Numbered from the stretch's first letter, positions 1 through 6,065 are shown. The stretch is 64,000 nucleotides of DNA from Gammaproteobacteria bacterium (GCA_021773395.1 JAJFKB010000002.1:513050-577049), one strand, 5' to 3'. Notes: generated by a model from the letters alone, not told the origin. Numbers and translations are program-made.

Positions 1-644
1 CAGACAAGCTGGGGCATAAGTCAAAATATATAACACTGTTACAGGAACTGGTTCTTACCCAGGAGTTACCTTTAAACGGGGGAAGTGGTCGAGCACTTGA
101 TTTAGGATGCGGATGGGGAAGGCTTACTGAAATAGTTCGCTCCAAAGGATGGGACACCTATGGTATCGACCCTGACAGTAACTTAATAAGCTACGCACGT
201 AGAATCAATCCTAAAATTGAGTACAACATTGGAGCACTCCCTGATTTACCGGTAGAAGAGCAGTCTTTCGATCTTATTTTATTACAGAATGTGCTACGTC
301 CTCTCCTGTTATCAAATAACGTCGAGGCGGCAAAAGCAATTTCCAAATATCTAAGGACCAATGGTCAACTTTTTGTCGTAGAGAATGTAAAAAACCAATC
401 ACCTGAGCACTTCAAATCCGAAGAAGTAGAAAGCTTTTTCCAAAACGAGGGGTTAAAAACTGTCTCGTGCATCGCGTTTCGTGCAAGCAGAAACCCCATG
501 CTCCTCCCGATAAAGTACGGACTAATACCTGAGAGTTTATTTGAGTCTCTTGCTCGTCTCGAAGTAAAATTTCTAAAGCGGGTTAACTCTGACCCCAAAT
601 TTCAGTATTACAATAAACTTTTTATATTCAGGAAAAACCAATAG
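1..644 (+). CDS. class I SAM-dependent methyltransferase (5' end outside window)
   Basis: The frame of the 291..644 ORF stays open back to the window edge, and I translated it without stops. It reads ...GRALDLGCGWGRLTEIV... (glycine-rich SAM motif I) and ...SFDLILLQNVL... It converges on the GT4 gene. Confidence 0.8.
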   Translation, partial: DKLGHKSKYITLLQELVLTQELPLNGGSGRALDLGCGWGRLTEIVRSKGWDTYGIDPDSNLISYARRINPKIEYNIGALPDLPVEEQSFDLILLQNVLRPLLLSNNVEAAKAISKYLRTNGQLFVVENVKNQSPEHFKSEEVESFFQNEGLKTVSCIAFRASRNPMLLPIKYGLIPESLFESLARLEVKFLKRVNSDPKFQYYNKLFIFRKNQ

Positions 645-657
645 CAGATTTTCACCT

Positions 658-1800
658 TCAATCTACAAGCGAAAGAATTTCTTTAATAGATCTATCCTGA
701 TCAAGCAATTCAAAGAAGCCCTGAGCATTAATTTCAGTTCCTGAGCCTCCACTCTGAAGCACCTCTCTGATAGCATCCCGATAATCTTCAATTGAGACTG
801 ATAGAGATACCGTTCCTAAGCGAAATTTATCACATAGTAATTTCACATCTCCCACCGGAGTTGCTATTACGGGTATACGGTTCGCAACGCCATCAGACAA
901 TATCACTGGAATACTTTCTATTCTGGAGGGTAGAAAGTAATAATCGGCCCATTTGAATAATCGATATAGTTCATCCTTACCAACGTAGCCGCTGCACTCT
1001 ACGGGGCGCCCCCTTGACTTCAAGGTTGCAGCCTTATCCTTGACCAACTGTTCCAACGGCCCGCCACCTGCTATGCGAACAGCACTTATCTTTGACCAGT
1101 CCTCATCATTTAGCTCCAAAAGCGCATCCAGTAAAATATCAACGCCTTTATTCGTATGCCAGCGCCCTACAAAAACCAGGTTATAAGGAGCACTGGATTC
1201 TTTCATGTTCAGAGCGTCTTCGGAGTTTAAGCGCGCGCTAGGAATCATTTCACAACTTACGTTACCTATTTTCTCAACATCGGAACAAAGCTGAAACCCA
1301 TCGGCATAACGCCGATCAGAAGCTTGCAATACCTTTTTCAAAATGAATCTCGTTAAAGGGTTTCGACTATAGCTCCATATATCACTTCCGAGTGCCCAAC
1401 TAGAAAATCTAATTCCCTTGCCGCGGGCGGCGAGCAACGCCCAAAGTCCAGAAGGAATAATCCAAAAGGCCAGAATTGATTTGAGAGATGGCTGTTCTTT
1501 AATTGCTTTTTTTGTGGCTCGATAGCCGGAAAAGAAAACTCTTAGCGTCCAATAGAAACCTTTTGGGGAGCTTAGCTTTAGAGCCGACAACGCCTGTTCT
1601 GGAGCGGAATAACGATACACATTTATCCCATCTATCTGTTCAATACAACTATCATTCCCTGGCGCGACAACCGTTACAATAAGTGTTTTTGATAGACGAG
1701 AAGCGATATCATAGACAAATCCTCCCGCTGCCTCCTGGCCTGGAGTTCCTCTTGGAAAAGAGGTTGTAATTAGTAAAATGTGCTTTCTTTCTACTTGCAT
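658..1800 (-). CDS. GT4-family (GT-B fold) glycosyltransferase
   Basis: The ORF 658..1920 is trimmed to Met41 (MQVERKHILLITTSFP...), which overlaps the upstream methyltransferase stop by 10 nt. The C-terminal half has the retaining GT-B signature ...FVGRWHTNKGVDILLDAL...YYFLPSRIESIPVILSDGVANRIPVIAT (E-x7-E-like). Confidence 0.8.
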   Translation of the reverse strand: MQVERKHILLITTSFPRGTPGQEAAGGFVYDIASRLSKTLIVTVVAPGNDSCIEQIDGINVYRYSAPEQALSALKLSSPKGFYWTLRVFFSGYRATKKAIKEQPSLKSILAFWIIPSGLWALLAARGKGIRFSSWALGSDIWSYSRNPLTRFILKKVLQASDRRYADGFQLCSDVEKIGNVSCEMIPSARLNSEDALNMKESSAPYNLVFVGRWHTNKGVDILLDALLELNDEDWSKISAVRIAGGGPLEQLVKDKAATLKSRGRPVECSGYVGKDELYRLFKWADYYFLPSRIESIPVILSDGVANRIPVIATPVGDVKLLCDKFRLGTVSLSVSIEDYRDAIREVLQSGGSGTEINAQGFFELLDQDRSIKEILSLVD

Positions 1801-2507
1801 GCGATTATGCGATAGCCATAGGGTGCTATTGTCGACGACTTCGCTAGCACTTCTGTTGCCCCACCCAAGATATTCAGTGCAAGAATAAAGGGCCAAGCCA
1901 ATAACCCTAGTGCCAGCCAAAGCGGATTTTTTGAAGCGCGATTAAGTATAAACTCTGATATCCCAATACATATCAACAAGCAACCGGATGAGAAGGTATT
2001 ACCACATTGTTGTTCGCGAACAATCTTGAATCCCGATTGTTCAAGCAATCTGCTCAACCCAAAACTTGTCCAGCGCTGAAAATCATAGGGTGCATCATGA
2101 ACGGGATACATGAATGGGACGTCTAGAACCAACTGCCCTCCCCCATCCAATACTCGATAAATCTCATCGATGCAATGACCTGGATTGGGCAAGTGCTCCG
2201 CAACATCCATCAATAGAATCGTATCTACCACATTATCTTTAAAAGGTAGTTTTTGGCCATCCCCAAAAATGTTTGGCTTTGTGCCATACATTTCAATCGC
2301 AGTACCCGGATAATCCAGGCCAAAGTATAGCTTCTCCTTTGGCAGATATTGCTTGATTTCCTGGTGGGCGCAACCAATATCCAGCACGCAGTTATTAACC
2401 AAGGAGGCAGCTTGTTGCAGAAATTTTTTCCTATGCCGGAGGACCAGCCATTGAGGGTGAACTGGCCAGGTTGCTATTCTTTTAAATACAGACTTTATTT
2501 TATTCAT
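1791..2507 (-). CDS. SAM-dependent methyltransferase (Methyltransf_11-like) with hydrophobic C-terminal tail
   Basis: Contains VLDIGCAHQE (motif I) and ...VDTILLMDVAEHLPNP...GGQLVLDVP. The last approximately 70 aa are hydrophobic (GCLLICIGISEFIL...LWLALGLLAWPFILALNILGG), suggesting membrane anchoring. Confidence 0.8.
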   Translation of the reverse strand: MNKIKSVFKRIATWPVHPQWLVLRHRKKFLQQAASLVNNCVLDIGCAHQEIKQYLPKEKLYFGLDYPGTAIEMYGTKPNIFGDGQKLPFKDNVVDTILLMDVAEHLPNPGHCIDEIYRVLDGGGQLVLDVPFMYPVHDAPYDFQRWTSFGLSRLLEQSGFKIVREQQCGNTFSSGCLLICIGISEFILNRASKNPLWLALGLLAWPFILALNILGGATEVLAKSSTIAPYGYRIIACK

Positions 2508-2565
2508 TATTTGATGGTCTGTGAGTAATTACTAGAATCTGGACAATCGACGAAAATCGCCTTCC

Positions 2566-5538: not shown

Positions 5539-5569
5539 TTTTCACTATTTTTTGAATTCTATTATTCTA

Positions 5570-5601
5570 CACAAACAAAAAAGCCCCCAGCAACTGGGGG
5601 C
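5570..5601 (-). terminator. rho-independent terminator after pilA
   Basis: The minus strand reads GCCCCCAGttgCTGGGGGC followed by TTTTTTGTTTGT. It sits about 30 nt after the pilA stop. Confidence 0.8.
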
Positions 5602-5630
5602 TTTTTCAATTGGCTGCCTTAGTCTAAAGC

Positions 5631-6065
5631 TTAGCGACAGTTGGCTGGTCGATATTTATCGTCCAAATCACCACCAGTACAATCCCAAGTCACACCGGTA
5701 GAAGCACCAGTACCCGTAAATATAAAGGTATCTGTATCAGCATCGCCACCCAGATTCTCAAGAGTATATGTAACTTGTGCCTCACTAGTGCTATTACGTA
5801 AAAAAGCAATTGTATTGACGTAAGTACTTTGATCCGAATCATCACTCACGCCCGCTTCTCCAGTTGTGGACGGCATTTCACCCATGCTGATGTAGTACTC
5901 GGAAATAGAAGCCTTATCCTTCGCTGCTAGTCCTACCACTTCAGCAACACGCGCCCGAATGGTATAGTCCTGATAGGCAGGAAGCGCAACCGCCGCCAGA
6001 ATACCGATAATCGCAACCACGATCATCAATTCAATTAATGTAAAACCCTGCTGTACTTTTTTCAT
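5631..6065 (-). CDS. pilA: type IVa major pilin
   Basis: The ORF is trimmed to [34 protein letters not shown], a class III leader with the G-F cleavage site and Glu5. The C-terminal disulfide loop is [15 protein letters not shown]. It is 144 aa. Confidence 0.95.

Follow-up and report, generated by a model that had tools for sequence, protein, structure and literature searches.

The question raised by the left end of a 64,000-nt stretch of DNA from a Gammaproteobacteria bacterium (called the window below; all island positions are window positions) is what a group of glycosyltransferase and methyltransferase genes does directly beside the gene for the major type IV pilin. On the minus strand of positions 1..6065, five genes follow each other in the order pilA, a gene for a 659-aa membrane protein, a glycosyltransferase family 2 (GT2) gene, a methyltransferase gene and a glycosyltransferase family 4 (GT4) gene (Table 1). 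An initial annotation, made from the sequence alone, had interpreted these genes as a new type of pilin O-glycosylation system in which a lipid-phosphate-sugar synthase supplies a transferase of the GT-C fold. The gene list, order, strand and coordinates given there agree with gene calls and Pfam matches, and this two-part logic is still the best reading. We consider it probable that the island is a pilin-dedicated periplasmic O-glycosylation system, in which a GT-C transferase resembling TfpW of Pseudomonas is fed by the adjacent GT2 enzyme, a relative of GtrB, ArnC and dolichyl-phosphate-mannose synthase (DPMS), and not by the decaprenyl-phosphate-arabinofuranose pathway. This is based on the fold and conserved motifs of the 659-aa protein, the class of the GT2 enzyme and the recurrence of the order pilA-transferase-GT2 in other genomes.

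Attempts to place the 659-aa protein by sequence searches were of little help with its membrane part. The sole Pfam match was TPR_14 (tetratricopeptide repeat, TPR) at residues 450-488, and neither Pfam nor NCBIfam gave a match for residues 1-440. DUF1736 and PMT_2 did not match the protein or any of 53 relatives at E<=1; over 54 family proteins only TPR families were found, plus a weak DUF6056 in 4/54. Searches of PDB sequences with phmmer and with a profile returned TPR proteins only. A full-length AlphaFold2 model was built on 54 homologs (pLDDT 92, pTM 0.91), and TPR proteins again dominated the Foldseek results, with STT3B and PglB lower in the list. Since the TPR proteins swamped this search, residues 1-440 were modelled separately (pLDDT 85.7). 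With the transmembrane-domain model, 14/14 top matches in PDB were GT-C-type folds (probability 0.98-1.00, TMq 0.35-0.52): eight STT3 structures (STT3A/STT3B and yeast Stt3; E=7.1e-4 for STT3B), C. thermophilum Pmt4 (TMq 0.52), PglB, two PIG-U, ALG12, ArnT and Pmt1. EmbB and AftA followed at lower probability, and unrelated transporters and G-protein-coupled receptors came later at probability <0.3. No O-antigen-ligase or Wzy_C-like structure was among the Foldseek matches, and the Wzy_C Pfam family matched no island protein. Judged from the model, the initial annotation was right to assign a GT-C fold to the 659-aa protein and to see no Wzy_C enzyme in it.

The predicted topology was read from the hydrophobic helices in the sequence and the AlphaFold2 secondary structure, with clusters of K/R on alternate short loops. 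It consists of a cytoplasmic N-terminus, 11 transmembrane helices (residues 18-424) and an all-helical periplasmic TPR domain (~433-659). In an alignment of 54 homologs with 35-72% identity, D47 D48, situated right after the first transmembrane helix in loop 1 (L45-L46-D47-D48), were present in 53/53 ungapped rows, and R81 P82 of loop 1 and K216 E217 N218 of loop 3 were invariant. Loop 4 carries Y295 (54/54 rows), P302 (52/54), an invariant D312 and D313 (51/54), and E364 S365 as well as Y373 H376 R377 N378 Y379 are invariant in loop 5. C493 and C535 are invariant across the 54 homologs in an otherwise poorly conserved TPR domain, which suggests that they may form a periplasmic disulfide; such a bond, if present, would fit the periplasmic location of this domain.

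The pair D47/D48 falls into the same position class as the acidic residues in loop 1 of known GT-C enzymes, which are D55/E56 in ArnT, D77/E78 in Pmt1 and D52/D53 in TMTC1. The likeness to TMTC1-4, eukaryotic O-mannosyltransferases of the GT-C/PMT clan, goes further, as these also have 11 transmembrane helices followed by TPR on the non-cytoplasmic side. Their motifs DD and YRP (external loop 1, EL1), KE(T/Q) (EL3), DW (EL4) and ERxxY (EL5) are read as metal and dolichyl-phosphate-sugar binding sites. Shared with the 659-aa protein are DD and (Y/G)RP in loop 1, KE(T/Q/N) in loop 3, an acidic pair in loop 4, and E-x-R-x-Y here as against ERxxY in loop 5. The parallel of these conserved motifs with those of TMTC1-4 and ArnT argues, by analogy, for an active enzyme with a lipid-monophosphate sugar as donor; like TMTC, it is proposed to be a protein O-glycosyltransferase using a polyprenyl-monophosphate sugar. 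The two differ in that the proposed acceptor is a pilin here and cadherin domains for TMTC, and in that the DUF1736 and PMT_2 models have no match here.

The nearest described counterpart is TfpW of P. aeruginosa/paraeruginosa group IV strains (Pa5196, PA7; AAM52060.1). TfpW has 646 aa, 11 transmembrane helices, a large periplasmic C-terminal TPR domain and the motifs DDX in periplasmic loop 1 and YX6PFX7P in loop 4; ArnT was the best template for modelling its membrane part and OGT for its TPR part, and in P. aeruginosa and a number of other species tfpW directly follows pilA (TfpW preprint). Its target residues are Ser/Thr in the alpha-beta loop of the pilin, Thr64/Thr66 in Pa5196. The premise that TfpW has no TPR domain, on which the claim of a new type of transferase had leaned, was false, and that claim has to be withdrawn for the transferase itself. 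The 659-aa protein shares with TfpW its size, cytoplasmic N-terminus, 11 (here predicted) transmembrane helices and periplasmic TPR domain, DD in periplasmic loop 1, the Y-X6-P core in loop 4, the ArnT-like GT-C fold assignment, OGT-like TPR matches and a gene position directly downstream of pilA. The differences concern the donor and its genes. TfpW uses polyprenyl-phosphate D-arabinofuranose (D-Araf), made via DprE1, DprE2 and a phosphoribosyl-pyrophosphate-dependent transferase, whereas here a GtrB/ArnC-type GT2 gene adjoins; no tfpX-like gene is present in the island, and the full YX6PFX7P motif is lacking. The 659-aa protein is called TfpW-like here to keep it apart from TfpW proper. Among the matches listed in a homolog search that started from the Phytopseudomonas argentinensis protein, all were relatives of >=69% identity annotated as 'tetratricopeptide repeat protein', and none was named TfpW. 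The preprint lists homologs of TfpW (WP_090729738.1, WP_130134296.1, WP_028883051.1, WP_139198627.1 and STR11763.1), mentions homologs beside pilA in other species and discusses the D-Araf genes only. A full-text literature search found TfpW, with D-Araf, as the sole pilin-specific GT-C, and no paper returned describes a version fed by a GT2 enzyme. Apparently new is that a TfpW-like transferase is coupled to a GT2 synthase encoded next to it, often together with a putative flippase of the LPG_synthase_TM type, and that this coupling is so widespread.

The GT2 protein is composed of a GT-A domain (Glycos_transf_2, residues 8-161) followed by hydrophobic segments at ~218-246 and 257-278. It matched ArnC (2e-15) and archaeal DPMS (3.2e-12) in PDB, and GtrB sll0501 was aligned over residues 5-281. 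Among NCBIfam models, AglJ was best (1.3e-34), followed by PgfS (2.8e-20), Dol-P-hexose transferase, PpgS and ArnC, all with scores far under the equivalog cut-offs, so that a class can be assigned and a sugar cannot, and the enzyme is not an ortholog of AglJ or PgfS. These similarities place the GT2 enzyme in the GtrB/ArnC/DPMS class of polyprenyl-phosphate sugar synthases, in agreement with the type first assigned to it from its two C-terminal hydrophobic segments, and we propose that it makes the lipid-phosphate-sugar donor.

The arrangement is not confined to one genome. A scan of one genome per species yielded at least 595 confirmed relatives of the transferase, and the 80 best-scoring loci, from Gammaproteobacteria, Betaproteobacteria and Magnetococcales, were taken for comparison. 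The gammaproteobacterial members include Pseudohongiella, SAR86, Woeseiaceae, Thiotrichaceae, Methylococcaceae, Competibacteraceae, Microbulbifer, Alcanivorax and Hahella, as well as P. argentinensis and Pseudomonas sp. P818. The protein database contains upwards of 3,300 scored relatives of the 659-aa protein, and a profile of the membrane domain only gave 7,858 50%-identity clusters at E<=1e-30. Pilin adjacency was scored in the 71 loci whose upstream sequence was long enough: a pilin gene was directly adjacent in 49, either co-directional and <=300 nt upstream (35) or divergent (14), and lay <=5 kb away in 63. A GT2 ortholog (E<1e-60) was directly downstream of the transferase gene in 37/74 loci and anywhere in the locus in 46/74; in several loci (e.g. 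L042 and L065) the stop and start codons of the two genes overlap by 4 nt. The linkage of the GT-C/GT2 pair to pilA, first noticed in the window alone, therefore extends well outside it. GT2-positive loci occur in all parts of the neighbour-joining tree, and the coupling is therefore a trait of the family and not an oddity of one clade. The idea that the GT2-negative loci form a separate D-Araf clade was rejected, as GT2-positive and GT2-negative loci interleave in the tree and no genes of the decaprenyl-phosphate-arabinose type recur in the neighbourhoods. Other recurrent neighbours were GT4 genes (25 loci), homologs of the 238-aa methyltransferase of the island (13 loci, 12 of them with GT2) and LPG_synthase_TM-like genes (19/82 loci, mostly right after GT2).

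Two further sequences were used to examine the island beyond the window and its variation: a public contig that is identical to the window and extends past its left edge (L001), and the corresponding locus of a related genome (L002). The expectation that the island continues past the left edge was borne out by the contig, where the second, 232-aa methyltransferase (Methyltransf_11 7.2e-14 when read whole) is followed by genes for a 307-aa polytopic membrane protein, a 397-aa protein with weak ATP-grasp matches and a DegT-family sugar aminotransferase whose best models, PseC, ArnB and WecE, all scored under cut-off. Next come a conserved GGDEF-EAL response regulator and then a hybrid kinase. 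In the related genome the flanks are as in the window, and pilA-transferase-GT2 is followed by a GT4 gene, a 487-aa unknown, an LPG_synthase_TM protein and another GT4 gene. Identity between the window and this genome was 93% for PilB, 92% for PilC, 88% for PilA and 85% for the GGDEF-EAL protein, against 72% for the transferase and 65% for GT2, and the other cassette genes are not homologous and were replaced. From these identities and the gene replacement, the locus can be described as a conserved core (pilA, transferase and GT2) with a swappable cassette. That the cassette past GT2 varies between close relatives is what diversifying selection on a surface glycan, for example by pilus-specific phages, would be expected to produce.

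In the initial annotation the absence of a GtrA-like flippase had been noted, and this stands: neither the island nor the recurrent neighbours in the related loci include a gene for a flippase of the GtrA (or ArnE/F) type. The 307-aa protein is the best, if weak, candidate by sequence for this role, as a putative member of the LPG_synthase_TM family. Of 13 homologs, 6 carry PF03706 LPG_synthase_TM, and an ITPxxxGxxE segment is common to the 307-aa protein and the LPG_synthase_TM protein of the related genome.

From the above we infer the following route for the glycan. In the cytoplasm a nucleotide sugar, probably amino and methylated, would be made, for which the DegT-type 4-aminotransferase, the ATP-grasp-like protein and a methyltransferase are candidates. 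At the inner membrane face, GT2 would load a sugar onto undecaprenyl phosphate, as its family and its two C-terminal transmembrane helices suggest. The GT4 enzyme, which possibly adds a second sugar, and the membrane-tailed 238-aa methyltransferase, which is proposed to act on the glycan, may then extend and methylate the lipid-linked sugar, this step being among the more tentative. The donor could be flipped by the 307-aa protein. In the periplasm the 659-aa enzyme would move the sugar to Ser/Thr of PilA, the proposed acceptor, by means of D47/D48 with K216/E217 and R377, while the TPR domain may hold the pilin. The likeliest acceptor region would be the alpha-beta loop at about S59-T74, which carries S59, T60, T61, S67, S70, S73 and T74 (mature numbering, from the sequence). 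This region corresponds to Thr64/Thr66 of the Pa5196 pilin and to Ser63 of Neisseria PilE. A terminator after pilA would keep the accessory genes at a low level.

Several observations weigh against this interpretation. The linkage figures come from the 80 best of at least 595 loci and may not hold for distant members, and in 28/74 loci no GT2 gene was present in the sequence fetched. Kinship to TfpW relies on architecture, context and partial motifs, compared with the published description, and the full YX6PFX7P motif was found in 0/92 family members: position 303 varies, and at 311 there is a His, directly before D312-D313. The 307-aa protein had no direct Pfam match even at E<=10, its family link being through homologs. 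GT4 enzymes usually work with nucleotide sugars and lipid-diphosphate intermediates, which makes the role given to GT4 here a guess. Finally, the Ser/Thr-rich alpha-beta loop had been brought forward as a sign of glycosylation; the residues are indeed present, but they do not discriminate, since the S+T fraction at positions 51-80 was 0.223 in adjacent and 0.211 in non-adjacent pilins of the same loci. Ser/Thr richness was dropped as evidence of glycosylation, the two sets of pilins being alike.

The pattern of linkage could also be explained by another target. The GT-C/GT2 pair might act on lipopolysaccharide (LPS), another envelope glycan, minor pilins or many periplasmic proteins, with the pilA site being merely a hotspot for variable genes. 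The region from pilA to the GGDEF-EAL gene is in fact a swap-prone cassette, some of the related cassettes resemble a polysaccharide locus, with Wzx-like flippases, a UDP-sugar dehydrogenase and several more glycosyltransferases, and no pilin was found within 5 kb in 8/71 loci. Set against this, a pilin gene is directly adjacent in 49/71 loci across Gammaproteobacteria, Betaproteobacteria and Magnetococcales, in both the co-directional and the divergent arrangement; chance adjacency was estimated at about 1% or less; and TfpW, the one characterised protein with such an architecture and position, is pilin-specific. We regard a target other than the major pilin as unlikely.

A second possibility is that the island is an ortholog of the known TfpW system, with polyprenyl-phosphate D-Araf supplied by unlinked genes and with GT2, GT4 and the methyltransferase serving some other glycan. 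Architecture and position are identical to those of TfpW, and absence of D-Araf genes from the window proves nothing, since in P. aeruginosa these genes are unlinked to pilA anyway. In the island itself, genes for DprE1, DprE2 or a phosphoribosyltransferase were not found, and none of these families recurred in the neighbourhoods of the 82 loci. Against this possibility, GT2 directly follows the transferase gene in half of the loci scored, in many lineages and often with overlapping stop and start codons, and the full TfpW proline motif is missing in all 92 family members. Orthology to the D-Araf system is accordingly very unlikely. That the 659-aa protein is no enzyme and acts instead as a TPR-bearing membrane chaperone or pilus assembly factor, in a role like that of TfpY-type accessory proteins, is scarcely credible, because although its TPR domain is a protein-binding module and its membrane domain matches no Pfam glycosyltransferase family, its modelled fold is GT-C, invariant acidic and basic residues occupy the catalytic and donor-binding positions of its loops, and its gene is tightly coupled to that of a lipid-phosphate-sugar synthase.

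The preferred interpretation, a pilin-dedicated GT-C transferase fed by GT2, can be compared with other known systems. The three-component systems GtrA/GtrB/GtrC, ArnC/ArnEF/ArnT, CsbB/GtcA/YfhO and GacI/GacL likewise combine a GT2 synthase having C-terminal transmembrane helices with an extracytoplasmic GT-C. They differ in the acceptor, which is LPS, lipid A or teichoic acid in those systems and proposed to be pilin here. They differ also in the flippase, for which the candidate here is the LPG_synthase_TM-family protein in place of GtrA or ArnE/F, and in that the extra GT4 and methyltransferase genes here suggest more than one plain sugar. The actinobacterial Ppm1/Pmt pair, the Pgf system of Streptococcus mutans (the GT2 PgfS with the GT-C-like PgfM) and the archaeal AglJ pathway all start from a polyprenyl-monophosphate sugar made by a GT2 enzyme. 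In the AglJ pathway, further glycosyltransferases and a methyltransferase work on the monophosphate carrier. In contrast to these systems, the transferase here has a TPR domain, where PMTs have a MIR domain, and its proposed target is a type IV pilin. The Wzy_C-family enzymes TfpO/PilO, PglL, PglS and TfpM also adjoin or act on type IV pilins in periplasmic O-glycosylation; these use oligosaccharides linked to undecaprenyl diphosphate, whereas the fold here is GT-C, like that of STT3, PMT and ArnT.

A wider generalisation can be formulated, by which the eukaryotic TMTC proteins would have a bacterial counterpart in this very large, unnamed family, dedicated to type IV pilins, with TfpW as a specialised D-Araf offshoot. 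In most members, a short methylated amino-sugar oligosaccharide would be built on undecaprenyl monophosphate, started by an AglJ-like GT2, extended by GT4, flipped by an LPG_synthase_TM protein and transferred en bloc to the pilin. Such an assembly logic is otherwise known mainly from archaeal N-glycosylation. Taken with all its parts together, we hold this generalisation to be doubtful.

With pilin glycosylation, type IV pili change in their susceptibility to phages, their recognition by the immune system and their behaviour on surfaces. Only two types of enzyme have been established for this modification: oligosaccharyltransferases of the Wzy_C type, and TfpW, whose arabinofuranose donor is unusual. 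If the interpretation given here is true, the TfpW-type transferase is no Pseudomonas curiosity. It would be the visible tip of a family that spans thousands of 50%-identity protein clusters and 595 or more species genomes, and in which roughly every second member sampled is hard-wired to a lipid-phosphate-sugar synthase of the simple GT2 kind. It would also provide a compact, portable pilin glycosylation module of two or three genes for study and glycoengineering, would tie bacterial pilin glycosylation mechanistically to TMTC, PMT and ArnT, and would account for the common annotations 'tetratricopeptide repeat protein' and 'glycosyltransferase family 2' beside pilA. Cultured carriers exist in Stutzerimonas, P. 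argentinensis, Microbulbifer and Alcanivorax.

Table 1. Features of the pilA-linked island at the left end of the window.
Feature	Position	Strand	Description
Second S-adenosylmethionine (SAM) methyltransferase	1..644	+	C-terminal 214 codons in window (232 aa whole); convergent with GT4
GT4 (GT-B fold) glycosyltransferase	658..1800	-	380 aa from gene call; Glyco_trans_1_4 9.8e-17, Glycos_transf_1 2e-14
SAM methyltransferase	1791..2507	-	238 aa, hydrophobic C-terminal tail; Methyltransf_11 2e-12
GT2 polyprenyl-phosphate glycosyltransferase (class by similarity)	2566..3435	-	289 aa; Glycos_transf_2 E=1.9e-33
TfpW-like GT-C glycosyltransferase (predicted)	3559..5538	-	659 aa; AlphaFold2 model, alignment, Foldseek
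Terminator-like hairpin	5576..5608	-	15 bp stem, 7 GC pairs, T-run; between pilA and transferase gene
pilA	5631..6065	-	144-aa major type IVa prepilin; Pfam Pilin 1.6e-18, N_methyl 2.1e-10

The prepilin ends in ...PANCR, as first noted, and has a C-terminal disulfide loop (C...C-R). Between the pilA stop (5631) and the start of the transferase gene (5538) on the same strand there is a gap of 92 nt; the strong hairpin located there probably reduces transcription running on into the accessory genes. Loci with accessory genes have been described as having terminators behind the pilin gene (PMC11841053), and by this same arrangement the pilA terminator fits the reported low expression of pilin accessory genes. 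The start of the GT4 gene overlaps the stop of the 238-aa methyltransferase gene by 10 nt. Divergent from pilA are pilB, pilC and pilD at 6452..10373.

A number of the related loci had features of their own. Four loci of Competibacteraceae / Contendobacter (L036, L050, L062 and L076, ~8.7-14 kb) carry a tandem pair of pilin genes and, after it, a tandem pair of TfpW-like genes, the members of which belong to separate branches of the tree; the copies may represent one transferase per pilin or per sugar. Two TfpW-like copies were also seen in L053, L056, L069, L077 and L016. In eight loci of Pseudohongiella / SAR86 (L003, L005, L008, L010, L013, L017, L039 and L049, ~8.1-12.9 kb), the transferase-GT2 pair is divergent from two tandem pilin genes, and an LPG_synthase_TM gene is usually convergent, right after GT2. 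The cassettes after GT2 in P. argentinensis (L042, 12.7-19.6 kb) and Pseudomonas sp. P818 (L065, 12.7-19.3 kb) contain Wzx-like (Polysacc_synt) flippases, extra GT2 and GT4 genes, methyltransferases, and a UDP-sugar dehydrogenase or a DegT and ATP-grasp pair; this content hints at an oligosaccharide and not a single sugar. Orthology of the DegT, ATP-grasp and methyltransferase trio of the island with that of Pseudomonas sp. P818 was ruled out, as the DegT proteins have 28% identity, the ATP-grasp proteins could not be aligned and the methyltransferase match was weak; the enzyme classes of the two are alike and the genes are not orthologous. A GT4 of the related genome (L002, 13069-14097) gave a weak match to Pfam GT4-conflict (PF20706, 1.5e-07), a family tied to biological-conflict systems, and the GT4 of P. 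argentinensis matched the same family (4.6e-08). No PADLOC defence model matched the island proteins. A tblastn search of plasmids and phages found no copy. A 5.3-Mb Methylocaldum record labelled 'plasmid unnamed' (L067) has the pilA-transferase-GT2 locus and is probably a mislabelled chromosome.

The base composition of the island was also measured. GC content was 43.2% in 1..5538 and 47.7% in the rest of the window, where 5.5-kb windows had a standard deviation of 1.6% and a minimum of 43.9%. The dip is real but small, about 4.5 points. The contrast of 33-38% with about 52%, a gap of about 15 points, which had been counted by hand on single lines and used to argue for horizontal acquisition, was exaggerated about threefold; a strong compositional anomaly of the island is ruled out by the measured values. 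Other 1-kb bins of the window are equally low or lower, at 16001-17000 (40.1%), 30001-31000 (42.2%) and 60001-61000 (40.5%). The whole 64-kb window contains no tRNA gene, and its sole Rfam match at gathering level is a bacterial RNase P class A RNA at 62284-62636 on the minus strand (284.6 bits).

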